Notes: a model not told the origin generated them from the sequence alone. A DNA stretch of 34,215 bases from Gemmatimonadaceae bacterium (GCA_035512875.1 DATKDD010000085.1:1-34215); one strand, 5' to 3'. Counted from the first letter of the stretch, positions 1-34,215 are shown. A program made the numbers and translations.

Positions 1-126
1 CGCGATTATGCGGCCAAGTACATCGTCGGAATGCCTTACGTTGTCGGCGTCATACTCTCTCCCCAGGCACGGGCGGCGCTCAATCTGGTGCCTGACGATC
101 TGATCGCCGATTCGGAGGCTCCATGA
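1..126 (+). CDS. 3' end of a gene running in from the window edge; probably the partner subunit of the downstream M16 peptidase
   Basis: Frame 1 is open from base 1 to TGA at 124-126. The stop overlaps the next ATG (ATGA at 123-126), suggesting translational coupling. Only 41 codons are visible, so identity is inferred from the usual pairing of M16 genes. Confidence 0.4.
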   Translation, partial: RDYAAKYIVGMPYVVGVILSPQARAALNLVPDDLIADSEAP

Positions 127-1478
127 GCTTTCGTCTGGTGGGATTCGCGACGGCCGCGTTTGCTCTGGCGACCGGCGTGACCGGCGCCGGCGCTCAGGTG
201 CAGCGCATGCTTCCCGGGACATCTCGTGAGGCACCGGACACGGCAACGGTGGATTTCGTGACGGGAGGCGTGCGGGTGATCTTGCGGCGAAACGCCGCCA
301 ACGATGTCGTGGCCGCCAATCTTTACCTGCTGGGCGGCGTCCGACAGGTTACGGACGAGAACGCGGGAGTCGAAGCGTTCGTCCTCGCCGCCTCCGAGCG
401 CGGTACGGCCAGGTTCCCGAAGAACCGCGCCCGCCTGACGGCTGAATCGTTGGGAAGCACCTTCGTCATCGAGCCGACTGAAGACTGGACGATGTTCGGC
501 TTCCGGGCGCTGCGCACGACACTCGACAGCACCTGGGCGTTGTTCGCCGACCGGATCATGTTGCCGACGCTGGACGTAAAGGACGTCGAGCTGATTCGCG
601 CCCAGCTGATGTCCGAGGCCCGCGGGCTTCGTGAGTCGCCCGACGCACTCGTACACCTCCTTGCCGACAGCCTCGCTTTCGCCGGCCATCCCTACGGGCT
701 CTCACCGATAGGCACGGAACGCTCGGTCGCCGGCATGACGAGTGCCGCACTTCGCGCCTATCGTGACTCGCACTTCGTCACATCGCGAATGCTGCTGGTG
801 GTCGTCGGCAACGTGGAACGCGCAGCCATTGAGCGACTGGTCGGCGCCACGCTCGTCAGGTTGCCGCGCGGCTCCTACGAGTGGACCGCACCCGGAGCGC
901 CGCCGGCGCATGATGGAACGCTGACGGTAGTGCAGCGCTCGCTACCGACGAACTATCTCCTTGGCCGGTTCAGCGGCCCGCCCGCTTCGGAGTGGAGCGA
1001 CTATCAGGCATTGCGGGTGGCAATGGCGATTCTGTCCGGACGTTTGTTCAATGAGATCCGGACGCGCCACAACCTCACTTACGCGGTGGACGCGCCGTTC
1101 ACCGACCGGGCCATTTCGTCAGGCGGGATCTACATAACGACCGTGTTCCCCGATTCGGCGCTGACGCTGATTCGCCGGGAGGTGGTACGGCTCCAGACCG
1201 ATCTCGTCGAGCCGTCGTCGCTCGCCAGGCTGGTACAGGGATTCCTCACCGAATATTTCCTGGACAACGAAACGAACGCCGAGCAGGGGGATTTTCTGGC
1301 GCGCGCGGCGCTGTACCGCGGCGATTATTCGGCAGCGGGCGAATTCGTCGAGGAGCTGCGCCGCGTCACACCGGAGGACGTGCGTCGCGTGGCGCGGCAG
1401 TACATCCGGTCGCTACGGTGGGCGTACATCGGTAATCCGGCGCGGATCACGAGCGCCCGGGCGACCGGCCTGGAGTGA
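123..1478 (+). CDS. M16 (pitrilysin/insulinase) family peptidase-like protein, probably a non-catalytic subunit, with signal peptide
   Basis: 451 aa with N-terminal signal-like segment (FATAAFALATGVTGAGA) and two-domain M16 length and layout. At the position of the HXXEH zinc motif the sequence reads GVEAFVLAASERGT, so no His/Glu ligands are present. Confidence 0.8.
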   Translation: MSFRLVGFATAAFALATGVTGAGAQVQRMLPGTSREAPDTATVDFVTGGVRVILRRNAANDVVAANLYLLGGVRQVTDENAGVEAFVLAASERGTARFPKNRARLTAESLGSTFVIEPTEDWTMFGFRALRTTLDSTWALFADRIMLPTLDVKDVELIRAQLMSEARGLRESPDALVHLLADSLAFAGHPYGLSPIGTERSVAGMTSAALRAYRDSHFVTSRMLLVVVGNVERAAIERLVGATLVRLPRGSYEWTAPGAPPAHDGTLTVVQRSLPTNYLLGRFSGPPASEWSDYQALRVAMAILSGRLFNEIRTRHNLTYAVDAPFTDRAISSGGIYITTVFPDSALTLIRREVVRLQTDLVEPSSLARLVQGFLTEYFLDNETNAEQGDFLARAALYRGDYSAAGEFVEELRRVTPEDVRRVARQYIRSLRWAYIGNPARITSARATGLE

Positions 1479-1485
1479 ATCCTAC

Positions 1486-2292
1486 TCAGCCTTCCCCATC
1501 CGTGGATTGGGGTACCGGGTCGTTCACGTCTCGTAAGGCAGGCGCTTCGCTGGGAGCCGGGAGAGGCGCATGATGCGTGGCGAGCGCCCCGTACAACGCC
1601 CCAACTGCGGTGCCGGCGAGCGCCACTCCGCCTATCGGGAGCAGGTCCCATGGCTCGATCAGCGGAATGAGCCACGGGGTAATGGCTCCGAATGCGGCGC
1701 CGAGCACTGCGCCGAGCGCGGCCGAGCTCAGCACCGTTTCATTACCGGCCCAGCGCATCAGGGCCGTGTGCATCACGCTGGCGATGAGCGCCGTGGGAAG
1801 TGCCGCGATGTAGGTTCCAATGAAAGCGAGCAACGCCAGCAGTATGGAAGCGAGCCCATTCCCATCGAGCAGCGCAATTACGAGGTACCCCGCGGCGATG
1901 ACGCCGGCGATCAGCGGCATGACCCTGCGCAACAGCACCAGGGCGCGATCGACATACCCTCTTCCGCGCGCCGGATAGAGCGGCGGCGGGCGGTCGGCGT
2001 CGAGGTAGAGCGCGAGCAACTCCGACACACCGTCCTGAAGCATTGCACGGGCGTGCTCGGGGGTCGTCGGCTCCGAACCCGGCACCTCCACCGGTAGCTC
2101 GATGACGTCGACGAGCTCCCCGTCCCGGTAGAACCAGACCGACGCAGCCGATTCCCGCATCCCGGCGACGTCCGAGCGGTCGGTTATGCCACGGTAGTCT
2201 GCCCGTAGGCGGATGCGCGCGAGCGGCTCCTCATAACGTGTCAGCACTTCCAGCGCCGCCGCGTCGATCCCGGACACCAGATCCGATCCCAT
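1486..2292 (-). CDS. hypothetical membrane protein (soluble N-terminal ~115 aa plus about 4 C-terminal TM helices)
   Basis: 268-aa ORF fills the gap between flanking genes. The C-terminal half is hydrophobic and Ala/Gly/Leu-rich (e.g. LIAGVIAAGYLVIALL). I recognise no family. Confidence 0.55.
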   Translation of the reverse strand: MGSDLVSGIDAAALEVLTRYEEPLARIRLRADYRGITDRSDVAGMRESAASVWFYRDGELVDVIELPVEVPGSEPTTPEHARAMLQDGVSELLALYLDADRPPPLYPARGRGYVDRALVLLRRVMPLIAGVIAAGYLVIALLDGNGLASILLALLAFIGTYIAALPTALIASVMHTALMRWAGNETVLSSAALGAVLGAAFGAITPWLIPLIEPWDLLPIGGVALAGTAVGALYGALATHHAPLPAPSEAPALRDVNDPVPQSTDGEG

Positions 2293-2319
2293 GGCGAATC
2301 ATAGCGGTGGGGGCGAGAG

Positions 2320-2425: not shown

Positions 2426-2439
2426 AGCTGCTTCTCGAA

Positions 2440-3834
2440 TCACACGGCCTTAACCTCGCCTACCAGCTTCGTTATCGAGGACTTTGCATCGCCGAACAGC
2501 ATCGAGGTCTTTGGATTGTAGAACAGGTCGTTCTCGATACCGGCGAAGCCCGGATTCATGCTGCGCTTGAGGACGATGATGCTCTTCGCGTGATCCACGT
2601 TCAGAATCGGCATGCCATAAATCGGGCTCGCGGGATCGGTACGTGCAGCGGGGTTCACCACGTCGTTCGCGCCGATTACGAGCGCGACGTCGGCTCGGTC
2701 GAATTCCGGATTGATGTCATCCATGTCGTACAACTTGTCGTACGGCACATTGGATTCGGCAAGCAGCACGTTCATGTGTCCCGGCATGCGGCCGGCAACC
2801 GGATGAATGGCGTACTTCACCTCTCCACCTCGCTTCTCGATCTGCTCGGCCAGCTCCCGCACGGCGTGCTGCGCCTGCGCCACCGCCATTCCGTAGCCGG
2901 GGACGACGATCACCGAGCGCGCATAGGCCAGTTGAAGCGCGGCGTCTTCGGGGGTGATCGATTTGACCGTGAGCCCTTCGCCGGTGCGCCCGGACGCCAC
3001 CGCGGAGACGCTCCCGAAGGCGCCGAATAGCACGTTGGTCAACGAGCGGTTCATCGCCTTGCACATCAGCTGGCTCAGGATGATGCCTGACGATCCTACC
3101 ATCGCGCCTGCGATCATCAGCACGTGGTTGTTGATCACGAACCCCGTCATTGCCGCGGCGATCCCGGAATAGGAGTTCAACAGCGCGATCACCACCGGCA
3201 TGTCGGCGCCGCCGATCGGCAGCACCAGGAACACGCCAAGCAGCAAGGATATGCCGATCACCACGTAAAAGGGCCACAGCAGTGCCTCGGCCGTCACCAG
3301 CTGGTACGCGCTCAGCGCCAGCACCACCAGTAACGCCAGCGCGTTCACGACCTGAAGCCCTGGAAAGGTGACCGGGCGGCCAGTGACCAACTCCTGCAGC
3401 TTGCCGAAGGCGATCAAACTACCGGTCAGCGTGACTGCTCCGATGAGGACCGCCAGCTGGATCGCGATGCCGTTCATCAACGGCACGTTGCTGCCGACGA
3501 GCTCCGACCGCAGAAACTCGGCGCCGCCGACAAGGAGCGATGCGCCACCACCGAAGCCGTTGAGCAGCGCCACCATTTGCGGCATGGCAGTCATCTTCAC
3601 CGTGCGCGCCATCCAGATGCCTAGCGCCGTACCGACGATGATGCCGGCGATGATGACCTGGTACGAGACGATCTGCCGGTCGAACAAGGTGATGGTGATC
3701 GCGATAAGCATCCCGATCCCCGACAAGCGATTCCCCTGCCGCGCGGTCGCCGGACTGTTCAGCTTCTTGAGGCCGAGGATGAAGAGGACGGCGGCGAGCA
3801 GATAGCTCAGCTCGACCAGGGCGTGAGGTATCAT
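2440..3834 (-). CDS. pntB: NAD(P) transhydrogenase subunit beta
   Basis: 464 aa. Multi-TM N-terminal part plus C-terminal NADP(H) domain with GYGMAVAQAQH and typical PntB N-terminus (LSYLLAAVLFILGLK). 4-bp ATGA overlap with pntAB. Confidence 0.95.
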   Translation of the reverse strand: MIPHALVELSYLLAAVLFILGLKKLNSPATARQGNRLSGIGMLIAITITLFDRQIVSYQVIIAGIIVGTALGIWMARTVKMTAMPQMVALLNGFGGGASLLVGGAEFLRSELVGSNVPLMNGIAIQLAVLIGAVTLTGSLIAFGKLQELVTGRPVTFPGLQVVNALALLVVLALSAYQLVTAEALLWPFYVVIGISLLLGVFLVLPIGGADMPVVIALLNSYSGIAAAMTGFVINNHVLMIAGAMVGSSGIILSQLMCKAMNRSLTNVLFGAFGSVSAVASGRTGEGLTVKSITPEDAALQLAYARSVIVVPGYGMAVAQAQHAVRELAEQIEKRGGEVKYAIHPVAGRMPGHMNVLLAESNVPYDKLYDMDDINPEFDRADVALVIGANDVVNPAARTDPASPIYGMPILNVDHAKSIIVLKRSMNPGFAGIENDLFYNPKTSMLFGDAKSSITKLVGEVKAV

Positions 3835-4146: not shown

Positions 4147-5234
4147 CTCGGGGCGGACAGCAGCATGGCGCTGACGATTTCGTCCTGCTCGTCAAGCGCG
4201 AGCGCGCCCTCGGGCGCCAGGTGCTTGATGAGCGTCTCCAGGTTGCGGGAGAACATCTGGCTCGCGTGAAGCGGCACTGTCGACGGCAGATTCGTCGGTC
4301 CGAGGATCGTCACTCCGTTCACGGCGACCGTCTCGTCAGGTTCGGTCAGCTCGCAGTTGCCGCCCGCCTCGGCGGCGATATCGACGATCACCGAGCCCGG
4401 TCGCATCGAATGAACCATCTCGCCGGTGATCAGCCGGGGCGCCGGCCGCCCGGGAATGAGCGCCGTCGTTATGACGAGATCCTGGTCGGCGATGTGCTTG
4501 CCGATCGTCGCCAGCGTGCGGGAGTGCTCGTCCTCGGTCTGCTGCCGCGCGTAGCCGCCGGCGGTCTCGGCACTCTGCGCCACCGCCTCCGAGCTGACGA
4601 ACGAGGCGCCAAGGCTCTGCACCTGTTCGGCGGCGGCGGGCCGAATGTCGAACGCGGACACGATCGCCCCCAGTCGCCGGGTGGTGGCGATCGCCTGCAG
4701 TCCGGCGACGCCCGCGCCGAGCACGAACGCACGGGCCGGAGCGATCGTACCGGCGGCGGTCGTCAGCATCGGCAGGAATTTCACCAACTGCGCCGCCCCG
4801 ATGAGCGCGGCCTTGTAGCCGGCGACCGTGCTCTGCGACGAGAGCACGTCCATTGACTGCGCCTTCGTTATGCGCGGAACCTTCTCCAGCGACAGCGCCT
4901 TGACGGAGCGCTCTCGCAGGGCGACGCTCAGATCGCCCGCCGTCGCCGGCTGCAGGAGCGCGACCAGCAGGCTTCCTTCCTTCAGCAGCGCAACCTGCTC
5001 CATTGACGGTCGGCGAACCGCAAGCACCAGTTCAGCATCGGCGGCGCTCGCAGCATCCGGGACGATGGTGGCGCCGGCAGCGGCGTACTTCTCGTCGGGG
5101 AATCCGGCCGCGATGCCCGCCGCGCTTTCGACCCGGATCTCGTGACCAGCTTTCGCTAGGCGCGCGACACCGTCGGGAATCAGCGCGACGCGACGCTCTC
5201 CCGCCGCCCGTTCGCGCAGTACGCCAATGCGCAT
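4140..5234 (-). CDS. pntAA: NAD(P) transhydrogenase subunit alpha part 1 (alanine-dehydrogenase-like dI domain)
   Basis: 364 aa with Rossmann motif VLGAGVAGLQAI. AGGAGG lies 9 nt upstream of the ATG on the minus strand. Confidence 0.92.
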   Translation of the reverse strand: MRIGVLRERAAGERRVALIPDGVARLAKAGHEIRVESAAGIAAGFPDEKYAAAGATIVPDAASAADAELVLAVRRPSMEQVALLKEGSLLVALLQPATAGDLSVALRERSVKALSLEKVPRITKAQSMDVLSSQSTVAGYKAALIGAAQLVKFLPMLTTAAGTIAPARAFVLGAGVAGLQAIATTRRLGAIVSAFDIRPAAAEQVQSLGASFVSSEAVAQSAETAGGYARQQTEDEHSRTLATIGKHIADQDLVITTALIPGRPAPRLITGEMVHSMRPGSVIVDIAAEAGGNCELTEPDETVAVNGVTILGPTNLPSTVPLHASQMFSRNLETLIKHLAPEGALALDEQDEIVSAMLLSAPSS

Positions 5235-5502: not shown

Positions 5503-6375
5503 ATGATCGCTCGCATCTGGTTCGGAATTGTGCTCGTACTCGCATCTTTCGTCTCTCGAGGTGCGGCGCAGGAACGCGTGGTGCAGCGCCATGGTTTTTC
5601 CGATGGAGAGGGAAGGCTGATGGCGTTCTACTCCGCGGGGCTCACGTTCTCGCCGGTTGCCGCCCCGCGCGAGCGCGCGCGCGGCGATCTCGCGCTCGGC
5701 CTGGAGCTGGGCTACCTGCCGCCGCTTTCAACCGAGCAGCGCCGTGTCGGTGACAAGCCCGAAGCGACCAATCTCGCGCCGATCTTTCCGCGCCCGCGCA
5801 TCTCCTACGCACTCACCGACCGCGTAACTGTAGAGGCGAGCTGGATCCCACCGATCGAGTTCTTCGACGTGAAGGCCAACCTGGCCAGCCTCGCCCTCTC
5901 GTGGACCGCACCTGCCAGCGGGGCGCTGCGATTCACCCCGCGCCTCGCCGGCACCCTCGGTTCGATTGAAGGGGCAATCACGTGCTCCGAAGAGCTTTTG
6001 AGCGGCTCGATCGATCTGGCCGTGTATTACGCGCTGGTTTGCTACGGCAGGGAGAGCCGCGATGAGTTCTTTCCGCGGCACATACTTGCGGAAGTGACGG
6101 TCGGATGGGATCGCGCGAACGCGGCCGTGGAACCGTATGCGGGGATCGGCGCCCGCCGCGACTGGGCACGGTTCGACATCGGTGTGATACGCGCCGATGG
6201 GTCGCGCGAGCCCGATCACCCGATTCTCGAGCTGCGCGCCCTTCGTCCGTACGGCGTGCTGGGCGCCACGGTTCGCGCGGCAGCACGCGTACGCGCAACG
6301 GCCGAGATGCTCTATGCGCCGGGAAGCATTCTCACACTTCGCCTTCAGGGGACGATCGATGCGATCAGGCGTTAG
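5503..6375 (+). CDS. secreted hypothetical protein, possibly an outer-membrane beta-barrel
   Basis: 290 aa with N-terminal signal peptide (IWFGIVLVLASFVSRGAAQ). It shows alternating hydrophobic beta-like segments. No family recognised. Confidence 0.55.
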   Translation: MIARIWFGIVLVLASFVSRGAAQERVVQRHGFSDGEGRLMAFYSAGLTFSPVAAPRERARGDLALGLELGYLPPLSTEQRRVGDKPEATNLAPIFPRPRISYALTDRVTVEASWIPPIEFFDVKANLASLALSWTAPASGALRFTPRLAGTLGSIEGAITCSEELLSGSIDLAVYYALVCYGRESRDEFFPRHILAEVTVGWDRANAAVEPYAGIGARRDWARFDIGVIRADGSREPDHPILELRALRPYGVLGATVRAAARVRATAEMLYAPGSILTLRLQGTIDAIRR

Positions 6376-6811
6376 GGGTGGGCTCGCGGCGGCCACCCTC
6401 TGCGCTGCCGTGGGCTCGTGCGCCGACTTTTCGGGGACCGAGGATCCCGCGTTCGGACTCCCCGATGTGGTAGTGGCTCAGCCTTCGTTCGCCGCGGACG
6501 TGCAACCGATCCTCAAAATGCGGTGTGCAGTGGGTGGCTGTCACACCCTCGCCTCAGAGCAAGGGGGGCTGGCGCTCGATGCGACTGTGTCGTACGATGA
6601 GTTGGTGGGCGTGCCAGCGACTTCGAGCGCCAATGCGTACCTACGTGTAGCGCCCGGGAACGCGGCGGATTCCTGGCTCATTCGGCGCGTCCGCGCCGAT
6701 CCCGCACTGCGAAACGGTCTAACACGGATGCCGCTCGCCACGCTCCCGCTTACCTCCAACCAGATCAGTACCATCGTGAACTGGATAGATCAGGGGGCGC
6801 CGCGAAACTAG
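6359..6811 (+). CDS. lipoprotein with Planctomycete-cytochrome-c-like (PSCyt1-type) domain
   Basis: I start it at the internal ATG 6359 (MRSGVRGGLAAATLCAAVGSC, lipobox-like). The longer ORF from 6197 would overlap the upstream gene. The domain pattern F..DVQPIL..RC....CH ... GGL.L ... S.L ... MP ... L....I..I..WI..GA matches PSCyt1 as I remember it. Confidence 0.6.
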   Translation: MRSGVRGGLAAATLCAAVGSCADFSGTEDPAFGLPDVVVAQPSFAADVQPILKMRCAVGGCHTLASEQGGLALDATVSYDELVGVPATSSANAYLRVAPGNAADSWLIRRVRADPALRNGLTRMPLATLPLTSNQISTIVNWIDQGAPRN

Positions 6812-6867
6812 AACGCCTGTGACCGGCGGCACAGTCCGCCCGGGCCCCGCACTGCATCATTAATCAG

Positions 6868-6889
6868 CCGGTGTGCACGCGCACACCGG
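6868..6889 (+). other. GC-rich stem-loop, possible terminator or attenuator
   Basis: CCGGTGTGC-ACGC-GCACACCGG, a 9-bp perfect stem with 4-nt loop, 57 nt after the 6811 stop. No U-tract follows. Confidence 0.3.
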
Positions 6890-6909
6890 TCGGCGTCTCC
6901 GGGAGGGGA

Positions 6910-7326
6910 ATGCACATCGTCTGTATTGCACGACACCCAATGCTGAGCGAGCACATCGCTGCGCTCTGCGTTTCGGCCGGGGGCGTCGGAAACCCCGCGG
7001 TGGGAGCCGACGAAGGGATGCGCCTTGCGCGAGCGGTGCGGCCGGACGCTGTGCTCTGCGAAGTGGATCTGCTCGTTCCGGAGACGATGCGCACCTGGGA
7101 ATCCGATCTCCAGCTGGGCGGCATTCCATTGCTTGCGGTCAGCTTGACCAGACGGCAGAACGAGGTGCCGATGCTCGCCGGTGCCCCTGTATCGGGATAC
7201 CTGTACCTGCCCACGCTCGCCGACAACGACTTGCGCCGCGCGCTTTCCGCCGCCACTCGTGCCACCCCGTCGCCTTCGGATGCCTATCGGTGGAGCAGGA
7301 CCGAGGAGCATTCACCGGTCGCCTGA
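6910..7326 (+). CDS. stand-alone CheY-like receiver-domain protein with degenerate active site
   Basis: Start chosen at ATG 6910 because GGGAGGGG lies directly upstream and the hairpin above sits inside the longer ORF. A (beta-alpha)5-like pattern is visible: HIVCIA / AVLCEVDLLVP / IPLLAVS / GYLYLP. By hand alignment to CheY the phospho-acceptor Asp and the Ser/Thr are kept. The DD pair (here AR) and the conserved Lys (here L) are missing. Confidence 0.5.
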   Translation: MHIVCIARHPMLSEHIAALCVSAGGVGNPAVGADEGMRLARAVRPDAVLCEVDLLVPETMRTWESDLQLGGIPLLAVSLTRRQNEVPMLAGAPVSGYLYLPTLADNDLRRALSAATRATPSPSDAYRWSRTEEHSPVA

Positions 7327-7328
7327 CG

Positions 7329-7853
7329 ATGATCAGGCACCGCCCGCTGGCCGCCGCGCTTTTGTGCGCCGCCGCCGCGTGCGGAGAGGATCCCGCCCCG
7401 GCTTCGGACAGCGCCACCGCTCATTCCGAGAGCCGCACGGCGACACTCGATATGGATTCGGTTGCCGCTGTGCAGCGTGCCGAGAGCCTCGCGGTGGCGC
7501 AGGATGCATGGAACCGGAGCGAGGTGACGAGCCGGCTCGAGGCGGCGGGGCTGGTAGTCCGCGACCTGGGTCGAGAGGTGCGGGCGCCGGGATTCAGCGT
7601 CCCCGGCGTCACACTTTCAGTGAGCGGCGGCGAGATCGTCGTTTTTCTGTACGAAAGCGCCGTGTCGCGATCGGCCGATACTTCGGCTCTCGATTCCGCC
7701 TCTGCCGCTCCGCCCGGCACCGCGGCATCGTGGCCCGATCGTCCGCGACTCATCACGTCCGGCAATCTGGCTGCATTACTCTTCACCGATCGTGAGCAGC
7801 TGGCCGAGCGCGTGCGCAACGTGTTGACCGCGCGACACGTGGGCGGGGGATGA
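7329..7853 (+). CDS. hypothetical lipoprotein
   Basis: Internal ATG 7329 gives MIRHRPLAAALLCAAAAC (signal plus lipobox), 2 nt after the upstream stop. No family recognised. Confidence 0.6.
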   Translation: MIRHRPLAAALLCAAAACGEDPAPASDSATAHSESRTATLDMDSVAAVQRAESLAVAQDAWNRSEVTSRLEAAGLVVRDLGREVRAPGFSVPGVTLSVSGGEIVVFLYESAVSRSADTSALDSASAAPPGTAASWPDRPRLITSGNLAALLFTDREQLAERVRNVLTARHVGGG

Positions 7854-7858
7854 GATGC

Positions 7859-8024
7859 GGGACGAGGGAAGCGCGACGCGCGACGCGGGACGAGGGACGA
7901 GGGAAGCGCGATGCGGGCTGCGCGATGCGCGATGCGGGCGAATCGGTGAGGTGAATGTCCTTCGCTTCCCGCCTCCTGCGTCGCGTTCCCTCGTCGCGCG
8001 TCGCGCTTCCCTCGTCCCTCGTCC
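7859..8024. repeat. long palindromic element built from GGGACGA / GCGCGAYG units
   Basis: 27-bp perfect inverted repeat: 7859-7885 GGGACGAGGGAAGCGCGACGCGCGACG pairs with 7992-8018, separated by 106 nt. The spacer is itself made of the same tandem units. It lies between convergent genes. Confidence 0.85.
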
Positions 8025-8031
8025 TGGATGC

Positions 8032-8065
8032 GAAAAGGGCCAGGCATTTCTGCCTGACCCTTTTC
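8032..8065 (-). terminator. intrinsic (bidirectional-type) terminator downstream of the pilin gene
   Basis: GAAAAGGGCCAGGCA-TTTC-TGCCTGACCCTTTTC. On the minus-strand RNA this gives a 10-bp GC-rich stem (one G-U pair), a GAAA loop, then UUUU. It lies 24 nt past the pilin stop. On the plus strand the same position is a C-A mismatch. Confidence 0.65.
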
Positions 8066-8088
8066 CGTGGAGTACCGTACCCAATTGC

Positions 8089-8472
8089 TTACGGGCAGTC
8101 CGGCACGCCTTCCTTCTGGCCAGCGGCCACGCTAGCACCGACGGCGACCGTGCACGTCCTGCTGGGGACCAGCGCGTGAACGCCGGTCGCGAGCCAATCG
8201 GCGGCCGTCGCACCCAGGACGGGTGTTACCGTCACGTTCGTCGACGGATCGAAGTTCAGCGCCACAAGGTCGGTCGTGAACGCCTGATTGTCGGAGAAGA
8301 AGCCTTCCTGAGCGGTGACGAGGTTGCGGAGATCGGACTTGACGGTCGCGATGTAAGCCTTCTCCTTCGTCGTCGCGAACTTGGGGATCGCGATCGCGGC
8401 AAGAATGCCGATAATCACGACCACGATCAAAAGTTCGATAAGCGTGAAGCCCTTCCGGGTATTGCGCAGCAT
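8089..8472 (-). CDS. pilA: type IV pilin (prepilin with N-terminal methylation/cleavage motif)
   Basis: 127 aa. Leader MLRNTRKG followed by FTLIELLIVVVIIGILAAIAIP (G/F cleavage site, Glu at +5). C-terminal Cys pair (SRTC...VPDC) typical of the pilin D-region. GAGG lies about 9 nt upstream of the ATG. Confidence 0.9.
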   Translation of the reverse strand: MLRNTRKGFTLIELLIVVVIIGILAAIAIPKFATTKEKAYIATVKSDLRNLVTAQEGFFSDNQAFTTDLVALNFDPSTNVTVTPVLGATAADWLATGVHALVPSRTCTVAVGASVAAGQKEGVPDCP

Positions 8473-26488: not shown

Positions 26489-27522
26489 CTCGTGAACGGC
26501 ACGCTGATGTGGCCAGCGATGACCGAGTCGCGGATGCCCTCGACGCGCTCGCGTACCCGATCGGGAATCAGCGATCGGTTGTTATCGTCGTAGACGTAGC
26601 CGACGCCGTTCTCGGCCAGGCCGTAGCTGTAGATCCCGCCGGCGAAGGTTCCCTCCTTCACGCGCCTCACCGCGTCGTACACCACTTCGTCCACCACCTT
26701 CACCATCGACGTGAGGATGTGTCCCGGTGCTGCATCGTACTGATCGGAGTCCACTCCGATCGCCAGTTTGCCCGTCTGTCGCGCCGCCTCGAACACTCCC
26801 AGCCCGGTGGAGCCTGACGCGTGAAAGATGACGTTCACACCCGATCCGTACTGACTCAACGCGAGCTCCTTGCCTTTTCCCGGATTGCGAAAGGCGTCCG
26901 GTGTGACACCCGCGTACTGCGCCACCACCACGCAATCGGGACACACGTGCCTGACGCCGGCGCGGTAGCCTGCCTCGAACTTGTGGATGAGCGGAATGTC
27001 CATTCCCCCGACGAAGCCCACGCGGTTGGAGCCGCCGGCGAGGACGGCAATGGCGCCAACCAGGAAGGAACCCTCCTCTTCGCGGAATCTGAGTGCCGCG
27101 AGGTTTGCCGGCGGCTGGACCGCGTTCCCCTGTTCATCCACCGTGAGCGCGTAATCCACGCCGGCAAAGGGAATTTCGGGGTATTCCCTTGCGAGTTGCG
27201 TAAGGTCGTCGGTGAAGATGAAGCCGATCCCCGCAACCAGCGCCATTCCCTGAGCAGCGAGCAGCCTGAGCCCCGCCTCGCGGTCAGAACCGTCCCCTGG
27301 CTCAATGAACCGCACGGCCACACCCAATTCCCGCTCGGCCCGCTCCGCACCCAGGTACGCGGCATCATTGAACGACTTGTCGCCTCGCCCGCCGACGTCG
27401 AAGACGATCCCCACGGCGAGCCGGTCGTCCGCTTCCTGGCTCACGGCTCCTTCCGGACGGACGAACAGGAGTGCCACATGCGTGGCGAGTAGGAGCGCGG
27501 CGACAATGAGGAGCTTTCGCAT
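26485..27522 (-). CDS. BMP-family (basic membrane protein / PnrA-Med-like) substrate-binding protein
   Basis: Start at ATG 27522 (MRKLLIVAALLLATHVALL). Characteristic GDKSFND motif near the N-terminus of the mature protein. First gene of a 4-gene operon joined by ATGA overlaps. Confidence 0.85.
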   Translation of the reverse strand: MRKLLIVAALLLATHVALLFVRPEGAVSQEADDRLAVGIVFDVGGRGDKSFNDAAYLGAERAERELGVAVRFIEPGDGSDREAGLRLLAAQGMALVAGIGFIFTDDLTQLAREYPEIPFAGVDYALTVDEQGNAVQPPANLAALRFREEEGSFLVGAIAVLAGGSNRVGFVGGMDIPLIHKFEAGYRAGVRHVCPDCVVVAQYAGVTPDAFRNPGKGKELALSQYGSGVNVIFHASGSTGLGVFEAARQTGKLAIGVDSDQYDAAPGHILTSMVKVVDEVVYDAVRRVKEGTFAGGIYSYGLAENGVGYVYDDNNRSLIPDRVRERVEGIRDSVIAGHISVPFTR

Positions 27523-27763: not shown

Positions 27764-29278
27764 ATGCCCACTCGAATCCGGACTCGATTCCTCGTGATTG
27801 GCAGCGGAGTCGCCGGGCTGCATACCGCCTGGCGGGCCTCCGATTCGGGTGAACACGTGGTGGTCCTCACAAAGCGTTCGCTGTTCGACAGCGCCACCGC
27901 CTACGCGCAAGGCGGCATTGCCGCTGCGTTAGGTGCCGGTGACTCGCCGGAGCTGCACTGGCGCGACACGCTGGCGGCCGGCGCGGCGCTCTGCGATGCG
28001 GATGCCGTTGCCGTGCTCGTCACCGAAGGACCGGCGCGAGTGCGCGAGCTCCACGCCGCCGGCGCGGATTTCGACCTCGACCCGAGTGGCGAATTCCTTC
28101 TCGGTCGCGAGGCGGCGCATTCGCAGAATCGCATCGTGCATGCGCACGGTGATCAAACCGGTGCGGAAGTCGCCCGGACGCTCATCGAGCGCGTGCGCGC
28201 CAGCGACCGTGTTCGCGTGCTGGAGCGGGCGCGCGCACTCGACCTGATCATCGATGAAGGGATCTGCGCCGGAGCGCGCGTCAGCGTGGCCGGCCGGCCG
28301 ACCGAGATCATCGCCGATGCGACGGTGCTCGCCGCGGGAGGGTGCGGACAGCTGTTTCGCCATACCACCAATCCGCAGGTGGCGACCGGAGATGGCTTCG
28401 CCATCGCCCATCGCGCGGGCGCGCGGCTCGCCGACATGGAGTTCGTGCAGTTCCACCCCACGGCGCTCGACACCCCGGAGAATCCCCTCTCGCTGATCTC
28501 CGAGGCGGTGCGCGGAGAGGGCGCGATTCTGCGTAACGAGGCCGGCGAGCGATTCATGCTCGGCGTACATGAATCGGCCGAGCTGGCGCCGCGCGATGTA
28601 GTGGCCCGCGAGATCTTCGCCCAGCGTGCCGGTGGTCGCGCCGTCTTTCTCGACGCCACGGCGTTAGGCGATCGCTTCGTCGATCGGTTCCCCGGCATCT
28701 ATGCAATCTGTCTTGCGCGCGGCATCGACCCGCGTCACGACCTGATTCCCGTTACTCCAGCCGCTCATTACATGATGGGCGGAGTGGTGACCGATCTGGT
28801 CGGTCGCTCGAGCATTCCGCGGCTGTACGCCTGTGGCGAAGTGTCGAATACGGGTGTGCACGGCGCAAATCGCCTCGCTTCCAACTCGCTGCTCGAAGGG
28901 CTGGTGTTCGCCGAACGGGTGGCGCGCGACATGCAGACGACCCCGCCCCTGGGCGCTCAGCCGCCCGTGGAGGCGTGGGATGTACCCCCCCTCCCCGACC
29001 GGGGAGCCGCACAGGTCGCGGCTAACGCCGTGCGCGACGCGATGTGGCAATACGCGGGTATCAGCCGCACCGCCGAGGGCCTTCGTGCCTGCCAGCATAT
29101 ACTCGAAGACATCGAGGCGCGACTTCCTCCAGGTGCAACCGAGGAAGTGAACATGGTGCAGGCCGCACGGCTCATTGCCGACGCCGCGCTCCTTCGGGAG
29201 GAATCACGCGGCGGCCACTACCGGAGCGACTATCCGCAGTCGAAGCGGACCTGGGGGGGGCGGAGGATTGTGTGGTGA
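27764..29278 (+). CDS. nadB: L-aspartate oxidase
   Basis: FAD fold VIGSGVAGL, HGANRLASNSLLEG and C-terminal ESRGGHYRSDYP. 504 aa. Confidence 0.93.
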   Translation: MPTRIRTRFLVIGSGVAGLHTAWRASDSGEHVVVLTKRSLFDSATAYAQGGIAAALGAGDSPELHWRDTLAAGAALCDADAVAVLVTEGPARVRELHAAGADFDLDPSGEFLLGREAAHSQNRIVHAHGDQTGAEVARTLIERVRASDRVRVLERARALDLIIDEGICAGARVSVAGRPTEIIADATVLAAGGCGQLFRHTTNPQVATGDGFAIAHRAGARLADMEFVQFHPTALDTPENPLSLISEAVRGEGAILRNEAGERFMLGVHESAELAPRDVVAREIFAQRAGGRAVFLDATALGDRFVDRFPGIYAICLARGIDPRHDLIPVTPAAHYMMGGVVTDLVGRSSIPRLYACGEVSNTGVHGANRLASNSLLEGLVFAERVARDMQTTPPLGAQPPVEAWDVPPLPDRGAAQVAANAVRDAMWQYAGISRTAEGLRACQHILEDIEARLPPGATEEVNMVQAARLIADAALLREESRGGHYRSDYPQSKRTWGGRRIVW

Positions 29279-29281
29279 CTT

Positions 29282-29503: not shown

Positions 29504-30496
29504 GTGTCCCTCCCACTACACGACCAGATTCGCGCGCTGGCTCGAGAGCGCAACGCCGTGATTCTGGCGCACAACTACCAGCGGCCGGAGGTCCAGGATG
29601 TCGCAGACTTTGTCGGCGACTCGCTCGGCCTGTCGCGCGAAGCGGCGAGCACCGGGGCCGAGATCATAGTATTCTGCGGTGTGCACTTTATGGCTGAGAC
29701 CGCGGCCATCCTGTCACCGGAGAAGATGGTGCTTCTCCCCGACATGGCCGCTGGTTGCTCACTAGCCGCGACGATAACCGCCGAACAGCTGCGCGAATGG
29801 AAGGCGGAGCATCCTGGAGCCGTCGTCGTTTCGTACGTGAACACGAGTGCCGAGGTGAAGGCCGAGAGCGACTATTGCTGTACGTCGGGAAATGCGGTCG
29901 AAATCGTGAACTCCATTCGCGCCGATCGTGAGATTCTCTTTCTACCCGACATGTTTCTCGGAGCGCACGTGCGCCGGGTGACCGGCCGGAAGAACATGTT
30001 CGTGTGGATGGGCGAGTGCCACGTTCACGCCGGCATAACGCCGGAGCACATCGGCCAGCAGCGTGCCCTGCACCCTGACGCCGAGTTTCTCGTGCATCCC
30101 GAATGCGGCTGCTCGACCAGCGTGCTCGAGGCGATGTCCGCGGGCGACGTGGAAGCGGAGGGGGTGCAGATCCTCTCGACCGAAGGGATGATCAAGCGGC
30201 CGGGACTCAGTGATGCGGACGAGTTCATCGTTGCCACCGAGGTGGGGATTCTTCACCGGCTGCGCCGCGAGAATCCCGGGCGCACGTTCCACGCGGCCAA
30301 CGATCGTGCCAGCTGCGCGTTCATGAAGGTTACCACGCTTCCAAAGGTGCTTCGCTCAATGAAGCGCCTGGAGCATCACATCACCGTCCCGCCGCACATC
30401 GCCCACCGTGCCCGCCGCGCGATCGAGCGAATGGTGTCGATAGGCGGCTCCAACCCGGCCCCGCTGCTCCCCGGCGGGGTGGATCCCGGAGAATGA
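29504..30496 (+). CDS. nadA: quinolinate synthase
   Basis: GTG start. RNAVILAHNYQRPEVQDVADFVGDSL closely matches the Thermotoga-type NadA N-terminus. Cys ligand contexts present (GCS, ECHVH, CAFM region). Confidence 0.92.
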   Translation: MSLPLHDQIRALARERNAVILAHNYQRPEVQDVADFVGDSLGLSREAASTGAEIIVFCGVHFMAETAAILSPEKMVLLPDMAAGCSLAATITAEQLREWKAEHPGAVVVSYVNTSAEVKAESDYCCTSGNAVEIVNSIRADREILFLPDMFLGAHVRRVTGRKNMFVWMGECHVHAGITPEHIGQQRALHPDAEFLVHPECGCSTSVLEAMSAGDVEAEGVQILSTEGMIKRPGLSDADEFIVATEVGILHRLRRENPGRTFHAANDRASCAFMKVTTLPKVLRSMKRLEHHITVPPHIAHRARRAIERMVSIGGSNPAPLLPGGVDPGE

Positions 30497-31416
30497 CTCG
30501 CTCCTCCAGAACGGTTCGCAACACGCCTAGCGACCAGCAGCTCGTCGTCGATGGCGATCCGCAGCGCTTTCCGCTGCGGCAGGCCCAGCTGGACTCGGTG
30601 GTACGCGCGGCGCTGAAGGAAGACCACGCGTTCGACGACATCACGACCATCGCCACGGTGGCGTCCAATCGCCGGGCGCGCGGGATGATCGTCGCTCGCG
30701 CCCAGGGGATCATAGCCGGAACGCCGCTCGCGCTCGCCGCGTTCCGCATCCTCGATCCGAAAGTCGTCGTGCGCGTCGATGTGACGGATGGCGGGGTTGT
30801 CGAGCCCGGCACGCCGATCATGTTCATTTCCGGTCACGCCCGGTCGCTCCTGTCCAGCGAGCGCGTCGCGCTCAATTTCATGCAGCGACTGTCCGGCATC
30901 GCGACGCTCACGTCGCGTTACGTCAGCAAAGTCGCGGGTACCCGTGCGCGCATCTTCGACACGCGCAAAACGACACCGGGGTGGCGGCTGCTCGAAAAGT
31001 ACGCTGTGAGGTGCGGCGGAGGGATGAACCACCGGCTCGACCTGTCCGATGCGATACTCATCAAGGACAACCACCTGGCCGCACTCGGCGGCAACATCAG
31101 TCTCGCGCTGAAGCGAGTGCGCAGGCTCGCTCCCGAGGGCGCGCGCATCGAAATCGAGTGCGAGCGCATAGAGCAAGTCCGCCAGGCGCTGGACGCTGGT
31201 GCCGATGTGGTGCTGCTGGACAACATGGCGCCGGATGAGCTGCGGGAATGCGTCGCTCTTGCGCAGGGGCGCGCGCTCACCGAGGCGTCAGGCGGAATCA
31301 ACCTTCAAACGGTACGACGCGTCGCCGAGACCGGAGTGGACTGGATCTCCATTGGAGCGTTGACCCACTCGGCCATCTCGCTCGACATCGCACTGGACTT
31401 CGAAACCGTCCGATGA
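30493..31416 (+). CDS. nadC: nicotinate-nucleotide pyrophosphorylase (quinolinate phosphoribosyltransferase)
   Basis: ATGA overlap with nadA. Typical motifs RKTTPGWR, LIKDNHLAA and SGGINL. 307 aa. Confidence 0.92.
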   Translation: MTRSSRTVRNTPSDQQLVVDGDPQRFPLRQAQLDSVVRAALKEDHAFDDITTIATVASNRRARGMIVARAQGIIAGTPLALAAFRILDPKVVVRVDVTDGGVVEPGTPIMFISGHARSLLSSERVALNFMQRLSGIATLTSRYVSKVAGTRARIFDTRKTTPGWRLLEKYAVRCGGGMNHRLDLSDAILIKDNHLAALGGNISLALKRVRRLAPEGARIEIECERIEQVRQALDAGADVVLLDNMAPDELRECVALAQGRALTEASGGINLQTVRRVAETGVDWISIGALTHSAISLDIALDFETVR

Positions 31417-32087
31417 ACGAGATGGCCGCGCTCATCGTAACCGCCGTCATCCTCGGCGCCCAACATACGCTGGCGCCGGATCACGTCGCGGCCGTCTCGG
31501 TGTTTGCCAGCCAGCGCCCGTCATGGCAACGGGCGCTGGGACTGGGTGCGCGGTGGGGGGTCGGACATTCGCTCACGATCGTGCTGCTCGGGAGCGCGCT
31601 CGTCCTGTCCGGGGCCCACATACCGCTGGCCTGGGAATCGTCCATCGAGCGGTTGGTTGGCGTCGCCCTCGTGCTCGTCGGCTGCGCGAGCATCTGGCGC
31701 GCGGCGCGATCGCCGCGCCGGTGGCACGAACACGACGGCGTAAGGCATGCACATCCGCCCATGGTGCGCGGCGCGCGGCACGATCGCGATCATCGCGCAC
31801 TGCTCGGCATCGGCATGCTGCACGGCGTCGCCGGCACCGGGGCCCTCGTCATTGCAATACCGCTCGCCGCGGCAGGCTCACCGGCGCGATCGATGATGTT
31901 TCTCGCCTCTTTCGGCATCGGTACCATCGTCGCGATGTCGGTCTTCGCAGCCGCCGCCGGCGCTGTGTTCGGCCGCGCGGCCCGGCGTTCGGCGGCGATG
32001 GAGCGCGGGTTGGGGTTTGCCGCCGGCGCCGGCAGCGTCCTCGTCGGCGTGTGGTGGTGGGCCGCCGCCGCCGGCGCGACTCCCTAA
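31413..32087 (+). CDS. NicO/UreH-like metal (Ni/Co-type) transporter with His-rich loop
   Basis: ATG 31413 overlaps the nadC stop (ATGA). About 6 TM. HX4DH signature (QHTLAPDH) in the first helix. Central loop RRWHEHDGVRHAHPPMVRGARHDRDH. Confidence 0.7.
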   Translation: MNEMAALIVTAVILGAQHTLAPDHVAAVSVFASQRPSWQRALGLGARWGVGHSLTIVLLGSALVLSGAHIPLAWESSIERLVGVALVLVGCASIWRAARSPRRWHEHDGVRHAHPPMVRGARHDRDHRALLGIGMLHGVAGTGALVIAIPLAAAGSPARSMMFLASFGIGTIVAMSVFAAAAGAVFGRAARRSAAMERGLGFAAGAGSVLVGVWWWAAAAGATP

Positions 32088-32114
32088 CGAGCGCGAGCTC
32101 CATGCCTGCCGGTG

Positions 32115-34205
32115 TCAGCGCAATCCTGCAGCGCGCTCCAACTGCTCGCCCAATTCTTCGGGGTTGGTTACCGGTGCATCGCAGGAATGGCTGCGGCAGA
32201 CATATGCCGTGGCGTGCCCGTCGCGCGCGACCCGTCCCTCGAGGAGGGCCGGCACTTCAGCGTCCGCCGCGCCGCCGGCCAGCACCAGCGCCGGCAGATA
32301 CCGCCGGGCGGTTTCGCGCGCCAATGCCTGAAAGTCCGGCGATTCGGGGTTGCCGGCGATCGCCACTTCGACCGCGCCGAATGCGGCCAGCTCCGCCGCG
32401 CCAAGCAGGTGGCCGAAGGCGGTAGGGTGCCGCGGCATTGGATCGGCCAGCGTTTCACAAACGAACACCGCGCGCCTCCGCAGCTCCGCATCGGCGGTGA
32501 GCTCCGCCACCCGCAGCAGCAGCTCGACGGCGAGCGACGTACCTGACGGAACCGCGTTGTCGGTGATCTCGCGTGGGCGTGTGATCAGCGCCTCGTGATC
32601 GCTGGCGGTGTCGAAGAACGCGTTCGCCTCGTCGTCCCAGAACCACTCTACCGCCGCGTGCGCCAGTGCGACCGCTCGCCGCATCCATTCCGGATCGAAT
32701 GTAAGCTCGTACATCCCTAACGCGGCGAGGCCGGTTGCCGCATGGTCCTCGAGCATGCCGTTGATGCGGGTCACCCCGTCCTTGTGCACCCGAAACACCC
32801 GGTCGTCGCGCACCAATTCCCGAAACAGGAACTCAGCGTTGGCGAGAGCGAGCTCGCGGGCCTGCGGGTGCTCGAGTGTGCGCGCCACTTCGGCCAGCGC
32901 TCGCAGCATCAGCGCGTTCCACCCGGCCAGGATCTTCTCGTCGCGTGCGGGCCAGATCCGCTTGGCACGCGCCGCGTACAACGTCTCGCGAATGCGCACG
33001 AGTTGCTCGTGCAGCACCTCGGCCGGTACTCCCTCGCGGGCGGCAACGACCGCAGCATCGTCGGTGACGTACAGAATGTTCTGCCCCTCGAAGTTTCCAG
33101 TCTTGGTCACGCCGTAGTACGAGATTGCCCGCCTGGCCAGCTCGCGTCCCAGCAGCTCGTGCAGTTCGTCTTCAGTCCAGAGGTAGAACAGCCCTTCTTC
33201 ACCCTCGCTGTCGGCGTCCAGTGAGGCAAAGAAGCCGCCCGACGGCGACGTCATCTCGCGGCCCACCCACGCAACCGTCTCGTCGACAACCCTCCGGATC
33301 TCCGGACTGCCCGTTGCCTGACACAGGTGCGCACCCAAACGGAGCAGCAGCGCGTTGTCGTACAACATCTTCTCGAAATGCGGCACCAGCCATTGCGCAT
33401 CCACCGAGTACCGGGCAAAACCGCCGCCGATCTGATCGTAAATGCCCCCGCGCGCCATCGAGCGAAAGGAATTGGCGGCGATCTCCAGCGCTCGCCCGTT
33501 GCCCGTGCGCCGCCAATGGCGGAGCAGAAAATCCAGCGCCATGGTCTGTGGAAACTTCGGCGCCCCCTCGAAGCCGCCGTAGCGGGAGTCGTAGCGCTGA
33601 GCCAACTCGCGGAACGCCTTCTCGAATAGCGGCGCGTCCAGCGCGCCCGAAGGACCCATTGCCTGCTGCGCTACCTCGTAGATCCTCCGGAGCTGCGTTG
33701 CGCCCTGCTCCACCTCGCTGCGACGGTGTCGATAGGCGTCGGCCACGGCGTTGAGCACGCGCGGAAATGCCGGGAGCCCATGCCGGTCCTCCGGCGGGAA
33801 GTACGTCCCTCCGTAGAACGGCGATCCATCGGGGGTGAGGAACACCGTCATCGGCCACCCACCGTGTCCGGTCAGCGCCTGCACGGCGGCCATGTAAATG
33901 GCGTCGACATCGGGGCGTTCCTCGCGATCCACCTTTACGTTCACGAACAGCCGGTTCATCGTTTCGGCGATCTCCGCGTGCTCGAACGACTCGCGCTCCA
34001 TCACGTGGCACCAGTGACAGGCCGAGTAGCCCACGCTGAGGAGGATCGGTTTCTCTTCCTGCCGCGCGTGCGCGAATGCCTCGTCGCCCCAGGGGAACCA
34101 GTCCACTGGATTGTGCGCGTGCTGCAGCAGGTACGGGCTCGTCTCACCGGCCAACCGGTTGGACGCGCGCCCGGCGCTGGTCGGTCGCTTGTGTGGTGAC
34201 GGCAT
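32115..34205 (-). CDS. YyaL/SSP411-like thioredoxin-domain protein (DUF255 plus six-hairpin glycosidase-like domain)
   Basis: 696 aa. N-terminal [13 protein letters not shown]...[14 protein letters not shown] is the family signature. Confidence 0.88.
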
Positions 34206-34215
34206 GATGGGTGAT

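Follow-up and report, generated by a model that had tools for sequence, protein, structure and literature searches.

A hyper-abundant nine-base DNA word in a narrow clade of uncultured soil Gemmatimonadaceae

As far as we are aware, sequence-specific uptake of DNA has been described in two families only, Neisseriaceae and Pasteurellaceae, and hyper-abundant genomic words such as HIP1 of cyanobacteria are unexplained after decades. The DNA uptake sequences (DUS) of the former family and the uptake signal sequences (USS) of the latter share equal orientation, spacing more even than random, biased use of reading frames, enrichment of the encoded tripeptides, origin by point mutation and stable positions (PMC2817400). 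HIP1 (GCGATCGC) is hyper-abundant, conserved beyond neutral expectation and maintained by selection, its function being unknown (PMC5861425). Here we describe an asymmetric word with the core CGTYAGG/CCTRACG in 34,215 nucleotides of DNA from a Gemmatimonadaceae bacterium (GCA_035512875.1, DATKDD010000085.1, positions 1-34215; this whole stretch is called the window) and in its relatives. The word belongs with the lineage-specific hyper-abundant genomic words, be they uptake-sequence-like or HIP1-like.

We show that a selection-like force acts on this word, as 9 bp of double-stranded DNA, in one clade. A first-pass annotation of the window, made from the sequence alone, had proposed that a DNA-level signal is shaping the genome, and this view is borne out: the excess survives coding-aware nulls, copies lie in both orientations, they take rare codons and their sites are conserved. 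The excess over such nulls, the rare codons and the conserved sites together imply that the DNA itself is the target of the force. What we describe comes from about 100 kb of a single syntenic region, and the orthologous copies of its five genomes are not independent counts.

Abundance and form of the word

The core occurs 38 times in the window (1.11 per kb), at every coordinate listed in the first-pass annotation, with CGTCAGG found 7 times on the plus and 18 times on the minus strand and CGTTAGG 7 and 6 times, respectively. Dinucleotide shuffles (n = 100) yielded 10.1 ± 3.6 copies with a maximum of 22, while an order-3 Markov model of the window expects 6.0 + 1.3. Of the 38 copies, 34 lie in coding sequence, where shuffling synonymous codons within genes left 10.5 ± 3.0 (maximum 21 of 2000 shuffles). 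In the strictest null, a chain of swaps that fixes the protein sequence, codon usage and every dinucleotide count, the expectation was 8.25 ± 2.7 with a maximum of 14, so that the excess stays (34 against 8.25) under the kind of shuffle by which the annotation had suggested it be judged; with the same constraints, 2.95 ± 1.6 copies of the 9-mer defined below were expected against 23 real ones. An unbiased scan of all 6- to 8-mers put CCTAACG and (G)CCTGAC(G) first among the 7-mers in excess in the window, and CCTAACGC (10 against 0.4) and CGTCAGGC (20 against 2.1) among the top 8-mers. As for the remaining particulars of the annotation, its 12 copies of GGCGTYAGG were re-counted against an expectation of 0.84, and its spread over at least 20 genes agrees with the 20 annotated genes that we counted. 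The GC content it assumed, about 68%, measures 65.9%, and the centre variants it placed near expectation, CGTAAGG (5) and CGTGAGG (13), both lie above it, though only slightly.

That the word merely follows from the usage of codons, codon pairs, dinucleotides or peptides, or is an artefact of assembly or base-calling, is hardly credible. The copies do cluster in a few contexts (Ala-Leu-Gly, x-Ser-Gly, Pro-Asp-x), but the excess survives the shuffles that preserve protein, codons and dinucleotides, the two main contexts are linked only as reverse complements, and the residues at copies are native in homologues; the relatives described below add further points against it.

Four syntenic relatives (L081, L082, L163 and L164) make up the motif-positive set together with the window, and pooled counts cover these five genomes. 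The window copies are listed here as exact core matches mapped onto annotated genes, the starts of which are approximate, with the strand and, where applicable, the codons.

91-97, minus: tCGTCAGGc, outside annotated coding sequence; TGA at 93-95
434-440, minus: M16 peptidase gene, antisense, CGC-CTG-ACG (Leu-Thr); C before the core, so no 9-mer
854-860, plus: M16 peptidase gene, sense, CTC-GTC-AGG (Val-Arg, rare AGG)
1117-1123, plus: M16 peptidase gene, sense, TCG-TCA-GGC
3086-3092, minus: pntB, sense, TCG-TCA-GGC
4334-4340, plus: pntA, antisense, CCT-GAC-GAG (rare CCT)
6370-6376, plus: overlaps the TAG stop of open reading frame (ORF) 5503-6375 (CGT-TAG-G)
7322-7328, minus: unannotated stretch; its TGA ends ORF 6871-7326 (CC-TGA-CG)
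10002-10008, minus: histidine kinase gene, antisense, CCT-AAC-GAA
10827-10833, plus: sucA, sense, GCG-TTA-GGA (rare TTA)
10988-10994, minus: sucA, antisense, CCT-GAC-GAA
12311-12317, plus: sucA, sense, CGT-CAG-GCG
12863-12869, minus: sucA, antisense, CCT-GAC-GAA
13483-13489, plus: PIG-L-domain gene, sense, GCG-TTA-GGC
15384-15390, minus: PIG-L-domain gene, antisense, CCT-GAC-GAT
17017-17023, minus: ABC ATPase gene 16978-18090, antisense, CCT-GAC-GAA
17153-17159, plus: ABC ATPase gene 16978-18090, sense, GCG-TCA-GGC
17848-17854, minus: ABC ATPase gene 16978-18090, antisense, CCT-GAC-GGG
20527-20533, plus: NDH-2 gene, sense, GCG-TTA-GGT; orthologous site in L081 GAG-TTA-GGC
21456-21462, plus: ORF 21190-21570, antisense, CCT-AAC-GCC
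21929-21935, minus: MFS transporter gene, sense, CCG-TTA-GGT; kept in L081 and L082
22472-22478, minus: MFS transporter gene, sense, GCG-TTA-GGC; also in L081
23257-23263, minus: permease gene 22915-23796, sense, GGC-GTC-AGG; also in L081
23729-23735, minus: permease gene 22915-23796, sense, GCG-TCA-GGC; kept in L081 and L082
24235-24241, minus: permease gene 23793-24902, sense, GCG-TTA-GGC
24544-24550, minus: permease gene 23793-24902, sense, CCG-TCA-GGC; also in L081
25246-25252, plus: ABC ATPase gene 24899-26488, antisense, CCT-GAC-GCG
25488-25494, minus: ABC ATPase gene 24899-26488, sense, TCG-TCA-GGC; kept in L081 and L082
26230-26236, minus: ABC ATPase gene 24899-26488, sense, CGT-CAG-GCG
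26813-26819, minus: Bmp/PnrA-like binding-protein gene, sense, GCG-TCA-GGC
26950-26956, minus: Bmp/PnrA-like gene, sense, GGC-GTC-AGG; kept in L081, L082 and L163
27927-27933, plus: nadB, sense, GCG-TTA-GGT
28662-28668, plus: nadB, sense, GCG-TTA-GGC
30074-30080, minus: nadA, antisense, CCT-GAC-GCC; Asp native
31286-31292, plus: nadC, sense, GCG-TCA-GGC; also in L081
32083-32089, minus: overlaps the TAA stop of the DsbD_2-family gene (CCC-TAA-CG)
32542-32548, minus: DUF255/thioredoxin-domain gene, sense, CCG-TCA-GGT; also in L082
32716-32722, minus: DUF255/thioredoxin-domain gene, sense, GCG-TTA-GGG; also in L081

Up to four copies fall on stop codons, two in annotated genes (6370 and 32083) and two in unannotated ORFs (7322 and possibly 91). 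This exceeds what about 27 stops should give, and the stop-containing frame is used too.

The bases next to the core define the word further. Among 105 pooled copies the preceding base is T in 43, G in 43, C in 14 and A in 5, the following base is C in 66 and T in 18, and the second base 3' of the core is rarely C. Position 8, where it is a free wobble position, holds C or T in 36 of 40 cases, compared with 62% of Gly codons ending in C or T in the background. No conserved G was found two positions upstream of the core. The word is a 9-bp asymmetric K-CGTYAGG-Y, and the flank bases give this consensus in place of the 10-mer GGCGTYAGGC that the first-pass annotation had put forward. Beyond one base on each side the flanks are unrelated among copies, so the word does not belong to any larger repeat.

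Single-base variants of the core mostly occur at expectation in the window, with two exceptions, CGTTATG (12 against 2) and CGATAGG (10 against 3.5), located as follows.

CGTTATG, often CGTTATGC: 1133, 2232, 4467, 4866, 9801, 11795, 13467, 14408, 19819, 25817, 26128 and 30034
CGATAGG: 706, 757, 1631, 5417, 7283, 14757, 18367, 24637, 30438 and 33730

The position-6 variant CGTTATG is 20-fold enriched in the clade (0.244 per kb, compared with 0.012 per kb in 1.6 Mb of controls) and is written mainly as nnC-ATA-ACG or CAT-AAC-G, again with rare codons, and looks like a near-cognate, tolerated version of this signal. The position-3 variant CGATAGG, mainly written as NCG-ATA-GGC, is 4.5-fold clade-enriched. 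At site 24637 the window reads GCG-ATA-GGA where L081 and L082 both read GCG-TTA-GGT, indicating that at least some CGATAGG are mutated copies of the word. Enriched one-mismatch words of this kind would be the expected output of a protein with graded specificity. The centre variant CGTGAGG is in excess elsewhere, namely in L017 (15 against about 5.5), a Gemmatimonadales metagenome-assembled genome (MAG) with a 3.5 Mb contig, in L072 (12 against 5.8) and in L075 (8 against 4.1); other lineages may carry over-represented words of their own.

Codon choice, conservation and clade boundary

The word is written against codon preference, with TTA, TCA, CCT and AGG, and mostly in two codon arrangements. 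In xCG-TYA-GGx the word lies on the coding strand and encodes Ala/Ser/Pro - Leu/Ser - Gly, and in CCT-RAC-Gxx it lies on the template strand, the encoded residues being Pro - Asp/Asn - x. TTA is used 13 times among the 10,536 codons of the window, followed by GG in 11 cases and standing inside xCG-TTA-GGx in 9. Within NCG-Leu-GGN it accounts for 9 of 25 Leu codons, compared with 4 of about 1090 elsewhere, and within NCG-Ser-GGN TCA accounts for 9 of 18 Ser codons. Likewise, CCT-GAC-G fills 8 of 25 Pro-Asp-Gnn sites, whereas CCT never precedes GAT or a codon that does not start with G. The residues at copies are native in homologues, such as the Asp of Pro-Asp-Ala in NadA, a position at which most of 40 homologues have D or E, and the codons at copies are therefore silent choices rather than sequencing errors. 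Base-calling errors at a methylated site were considered and ruled out on the same ground and from the agreement of five assemblies. An asymmetric word here overrides codon preference, to the extent that TTA exists almost only within it, and the codon-usage statistics of the clade are distorted by a DNA signal.

The window taken alone would accord with a neutral context-specific mutational hotspot, for example deamination or mis-repair giving A at position 5 of CGTYNGG. Its excess lies mostly in the frames where positions 2, 5 and 8 wobble (18 against 1.1 and 10 against 2.1), whereas the Leu-Thr frame nnC-CTG-ACG, made up of preferred codons, holds 1 copy against 5.0 expected; in addition, TCC is underused compared with TCG in this context (2 against 10). 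However, the following counts of the 9-mer, pooled over 91 kb of coding sequence from the five genomes and compared with synonymous shuffling, show enrichment in all five usable frames, at ratios from 2.7x to 37x.

xCG-TYA-GG (sense): 39 observed, 1.06 expected
CCT-RAC-G (antisense): 30 observed, 2.24 expected
Val-Arg (sense): 5 observed, 0.42 expected
Arg-Gln (sense): 6 observed, 0.95 expected
Leu-Thr (antisense): 14 observed, 5.28 expected

In the Leu-Thr frame, copies ending in a purine at position 8 show no excess (9 against 11.25), and those kept between genomes mostly have Y there (CAC, CGC, GAC or TAC before CTG-ACG). As a rough estimate, about a quarter to 40% of compatible sites are occupied, to a similar degree in all frames and at roughly one third overall. 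The enrichment of the Leu-Thr, Val-Arg and Arg-Gln frames speaks against a hotspot, as do the non-motif codons, which hold their usual proportions in context: the precursors are undrained, with CCG:CCC at 13:9 compared with 247:152 elsewhere and CTC:CTG at 22:12 compared with 94:41. Moreover, TTA takes two changes from CTN, and AGG a transversion from CGG.

Conservation between genomes bears on the same question. Clade members are 78-82% identical in nucleotides, and the rarest codons outside the word, each making up less than 10% of the codons for its amino acid, reappear in the partner genome in 0-18% of comparisons; where the residue is unchanged, for example, TCA recurs in 4%, CTA in 2%, CCT in 11%, AGG in 12% and TTG in 14%. 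This recurrence near background frequency means that silent sites are effectively randomised. Retention of the word was counted at orthologous sites where both genomes, A and B, have a word-compatible tripeptide.

xCG-TYA-GG: word in B in 67% if A has it, in 19% if A is without it
CCT-RAC-G: word in B in 58% if A has it, in 29% if A is without it
Leu-Thr: word in B in 57% if A has it, in 8% if A is without it
Val-Arg: word in B in 77% if A has it, in 2% if A is without it

Copies are thus kept at orthologous sites past synonymous saturation (57-77% against 0-18%), in the comparison of orthologues that the first-pass annotation had suggested. Rare codons are the informative comparison here, a control based on generic 7-mer conservation being too broad. 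By the argument made for HIP1, such site conservation points to maintenance rather than neutral replenishment (PMC5861425). In short Logan contigs from soil metagenomes, the 40 differences listed, a minority of all differences from the window, included none inside a copy, with about 0.4 expected, and are too few to be informative.

The word also seems to have shifted amino-acid triplets, the numbers being small and the lineages non-independent. The sister tripeptide is incompatible with the word at about half of the clade motif sites (AAG, AVA, AMG, PEG); in the same orthologous genes, and again in small numbers, the clade exceeds the sister 1.1-1.6-fold in [SPA][LS]G and has fewer of the control tripeptides [SPA][IVM]G. 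At codon 231 of ABC2 three relatives have His/Arg-Leu-Thr together with the word, in contrast to Arg-Leu-Ala in the window and Gln-Met-Ala in the sister.

Same-site persistence despite saturated silent sites (67% against 19%) and amino acids changed towards the word add to the points against the hotspot, which we now consider very unlikely. A narrower version, a G-to-A hotspot at position 5 whose products would be synonymous only where positions 2, 5 and 8 wobble, was dropped, since all frames are enriched, precursors are undrained and sites are conserved.

An alternative that we rate as unlikely, though as the likeliest of the rivals, is a drive linked to methylation or repair. A clade methyltransferase or restriction-type enzyme, similar to MmeI or to PglX of bacteriophage exclusion (BREX) systems, would act on CCTRAC(G) with the A at position 5, and a partner resembling very-short-patch repair would correct mismatches towards the word, creating and preserving copies without any function at the level of the organism. 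Such enzymes typically recognise asymmetric sites of 6-8 bp with a single R/Y position, as the word would be. Enrichment peaks in the frames that leave the A/T positions 3 and 5 silent (37x and 13x, compared with 2.7x for Leu-Thr), the wobble positions 2, 5 and 8 are strongly coupled, the sharp clade boundary fits the gain of one gene, and conservation would also be predicted if repair restores the word. Known very-short-patch repair, however, goes from T to C, while A:T pairs are gained here; enrichment persists, with conserved copies, in the frames whose positions 3 and 5 the protein fixes; the transition precursors are undrained, CCC:CCG and CTC:CTG being the same in and out of context; and restriction-modification sites are usually neutral or avoided, not 10-20-fold enriched. 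Mutation or repair bias had been the second branch of the reading in the first-pass annotation; its simple hotspot form is disfavoured by fixed-frame enrichment, undrained precursors and amino-acid changes, and its form as a motif-directed repair drive, giving the same conservation signal, stays among the rivals.

A less likely alternative still is a HIP1-like array of binding sites for a chromosome-organising or nucleoid-associated protein, under selection for chromosome structure or segregation. The word is hyper-abundant, intragenic and conserved past neutral expectation, which follows the same logic as HIP1 (PMC5861425). It is also neutral in orientation, and its spacing in the window is slightly more regular than random (coefficient of variation of gaps 0.76 against 0.97, p = 0.047, for 38 copies). 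On the other side stand the palindromic nature of HIP1 in contrast to the asymmetric word, the lack of a known candidate protein, and the tens per genome, rather than about one per kb, of parS, Noc-binding (NBS), SlmA-binding (SBS) and matS sites.

Copies lie in both orientations, as the first-pass annotation had noted, and are balanced, with 70 sense and 68 antisense copies pooled over the five genomes; the 2:1 sense bias of the window is not general. Word density outside genes is like that inside, with no intergenic excess, and a single inverted pair within 60 nt was found in 102 kb (L163, 9517/9558), no terminator dyads being seen. A polar signal for recombination (Chi-like, through RecBCD or AddAB) or segregation (through FtsK, like the FtsK-orienting polar sequences, KOPS) has very little to recommend it, even less than the hotspot. 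As with Chi, KOPS and the architecture-imparting sequences (AIMS), the word is a short, over-represented, asymmetric 7-8-mer in core genes, and a mild minus-strand excess is seen in the window (24:14) and likewise in the relatives. Yet Chi and KOPS/AIMS are strongly co-oriented with replication and much sparser, whereas the word lacks polarity within genes, populates both strands of 34 kb (14 plus, 24 minus, the positions of origin and terminus being unknown), and at 1-2 per kb is several-fold denser than 7-8-mer Chi sites and far denser than KOPS. The first-pass annotation had likened the word to uptake sequences and set Chi and KOPS aside; the former comparison is apt and the latter step was right, there being no polarity (70:68).

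The hyper-abundant word is specific to a narrow clade of uncultured soil Gemmatimonadaceae, as shown by the densities in the relatives and in the syntenic sister.

L081: JGI metagenome, NadA 88-90% identical, 1.71 core copies per kb
L082: NCBI MAG GCA_035461825.1, NadA 88-90%, 1.62 core copies per kb
L163: ENA, NadA 88-90%, 1.95 core copies per kb
L164: JGI, NadA 88-90%, 1.27 core copies per kb
L165/L166: GCA_035249955.1, syntenic sister, NadA 85%, 0.24 core copies per kb

Around NadA homologues in 80 species-genome loci, which include Gemmatimonadaceae with NadA 73-80% identical, the core reaches at most 0.57 copies per kb and CGTTAGG 0-3 copies per locus, and no clade member was found in this collection. 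Pooled controls of 1.6 Mb with a GC content of at least 62% have 0.20 per kb of the core and 0.071 per kb of the 9-mer, the 9-mer density of the clade being 10-20-fold higher. In a metagenome scan with NDH-2, the matches listed held only relatives of at most 64% identity, which we used as negative controls. In the motif-positive relatives, genes that the window does not contain (cydAB, M20 peptidase, TMEM260-like, CarboxypepD_reg) carry 1.65 copies per kb, compared with 0.17 per kb in the matching stretch of the sister, so the excess is not confined to the genes of the window. The sister, with the same genes and GC content and no excess, is a natural control for codon-pair and peptide effects, and the presence of the excess in five independent assemblies (the window and JGI, NCBI and ENA sources) shows that it is not an artefact of a single assembly; both points weigh further against a by-product or artefact.

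Genes of the window and its relatives

The window represents part of the chromosome of an uncultured Gemmatimonadaceae bacterium, with housekeeping genes assigned through Pfam. An exact copy of its NadA is not on record; the best match is 94% identical, the named homologues are Gemmatimonadaceae MAG proteins, and the public runs that hold the window sequence are soil metagenomes. The Pfam-assigned genes are as follows.

M16 peptidase, PntAB transhydrogenase, histidine kinase, SucA and a PIG-L-domain protein
Two ABC transport systems, NDH-2 and an MFS transporter
NadB, NadA, NadC, a DsbD_2 protein and a DUF255 thioredoxin-domain protein
8089-8472, minus: PilA-like type IV pilin gene

The pilin gene encodes a classical type IVa major-pilin-like protein of 127 aa with a methylation motif at the N-terminus (KGFTLIELLIVV) and a pair of cysteines at the C-terminus. 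Its presence establishes that the organism has type IV pili, but nothing ties the pilin to the word; the first-pass annotation, too, had seen no direct link to uptake, and the pilin is indeed an ordinary PilA-like one without a specific link. The neighbouring stretch 6376-8088 has no Pfam-supported gene and its gene calls are uncertain. ORF 6197-6811 (plus) has a CxxxxCH-like haem motif, and the second half of ORF 6873-7853 (plus) is lipoprotein-like, with a start near 7330.

In the four motif-positive relatives cydAB (cytochrome bd oxidase) lies between nadC and the DsbD_2 gene, at the positions given here.

L081: 11913-14344
L082: 10039-12491
L163: 7813-10241
L164: 1951-4400

It is absent from the window (31416-31419) and from the sister L165, which would fit either an insertion in a subclade or parallel loss. 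The depth of soil-metagenome contigs rises 10- to 50-fold at 17228-17729 (ATPase Walker/ABC signature) and at 28272-28773 (nadB), because conserved protein motifs recruit contigs of many organisms; this is not a property of the genome.

Uptake sequences and other known systems

Our preferred reading, held tentatively and with less than even confidence, is that the word may serve as an uptake-sequence-like self-recognition tag. We prefer it because the drive behind USS and DUS is the known process that yields the whole pattern (PMC2817400). A surface DNA receptor of the competence or type IV pilus machinery would bind word-bearing fragments. Uptake and recombination would then favour conspecific alleles that carry the word, and the resulting molecular drive would multiply copies and keep them at all sites where proteins can accommodate the word. 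The uneven use of frames may come from positions 0 and 8 being part of the word, which would restrict the Leu-Thr frame, and from new copies arising most easily by GC-to-AT changes at silent sites. Copy density, not each single copy, is probably what counts. The further claim is doubtful, namely that this would be the first DNA uptake sequence outside Proteobacteria, in a competent genus-level clade that takes up only K-CGTYAGG-Y DNA, with a tag that postdates the split from the sister.

Several points weigh against an uptake tag. The organisms are uncultured, no receptor is known, and the evidence for competence amounts to a generic type IV pilin, a gene so nearly ubiquitous that it proves nothing. 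The word holds about 15 bits compared with 18-24 for USS and DUS, and the contrast between self and foreign DNA is 10-20-fold rather than 200-1000-fold. Intergenic inverted pairs and terminator dyads are missing (one pair within 60 nt in 102 kb). Favoured frames take rare codons, while frame use in USS and DUS correlates with preferred codons (PMC2817400), and the enrichment varies more than 10-fold by frame (2.7x-37x), where uniform drive at equilibrium predicts otherwise. About 100 kb of one syntenic region were covered rather than whole genomes, the orthologous copies across the five genomes are not independent, and a motif-directed repair system would yield an identical conservation signal.

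The sharp on/off boundary between sister lineages means that the responsible gene, whether for a receptor, a methyltransferase, a repair enzyme or a DNA-binding protein, can be found by presence/absence comparison. If the uptake tag holds, the receptor gene could be found by comparing motif-positive with motif-negative genomes, and the clade would provide an origin of uptake specificity that is dated and phylogenetically bracketed, in an abundant soil phylum whose gene exchange has barely been studied. Words of this kind are also usable as lineage markers in metagenome binning, and they call for caution in analyses of codon usage and selection.

In the paper library searched, nothing relevant turned up on the motif strings, nor on Gemmatimonas together with competence or uptake sequences. 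Among described systems, Dcm/Vsr resembles the present case in that a sequence-specific DNA-level process alters word frequencies on both strands whatever the coding. In E. coli its effects, an excess of CCWGG and a deficit of CTAG, are modest, run from T to C and concern a palindromic site; here the excess is 10-20-fold, an asymmetric site has gained A:T pairs against a GC-rich background, and encoded residues have changed too. The signature of Dcm/Vsr, a depleted deaminated variant and correction at one position, was not found, since one-off variants are not depleted overall, precursor codons are undrained, all frames are enriched and residues have shifted. HIP1 comes closer, with up to one or more copies per gene inside reading frames and individually conserved sites, as here. 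It differs in being a palindromic octamer, whereas CGTYAGG is not self-complementary, and the HIP1 palindrome overlaps known methylation sites.

The USS of Pasteurellaceae (AAGTGCGGT / ACAAGCGGT) and the DUS of Neisseriaceae (GCCGTCTGAA) differ from the present word, which comes from another phylum, Gemmatimonadota, in being longer and less degenerate and in their frequent intergenic inverted terminator pairs, compared with the one pair in 102 kb. The preferred-codon frame C-CTG-ACG is the least enriched here, the TTA, TCA, CCT and AGG frames being the most used. In other respects the likeness is extensive: like them, the word is a lineage-specific, short, asymmetric word present about once per kb, in both orientations about equally (70:68) and mostly or often inside genes. 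Its copies, whose flanks are unrelated, point to an origin by point mutation rather than copying, its frame bias is strong (2.7x-37x) and the encoded tripeptides are enriched (1.1-1.6-fold, in small numbers), and its positions are stable between related species, with 57-77% retention.

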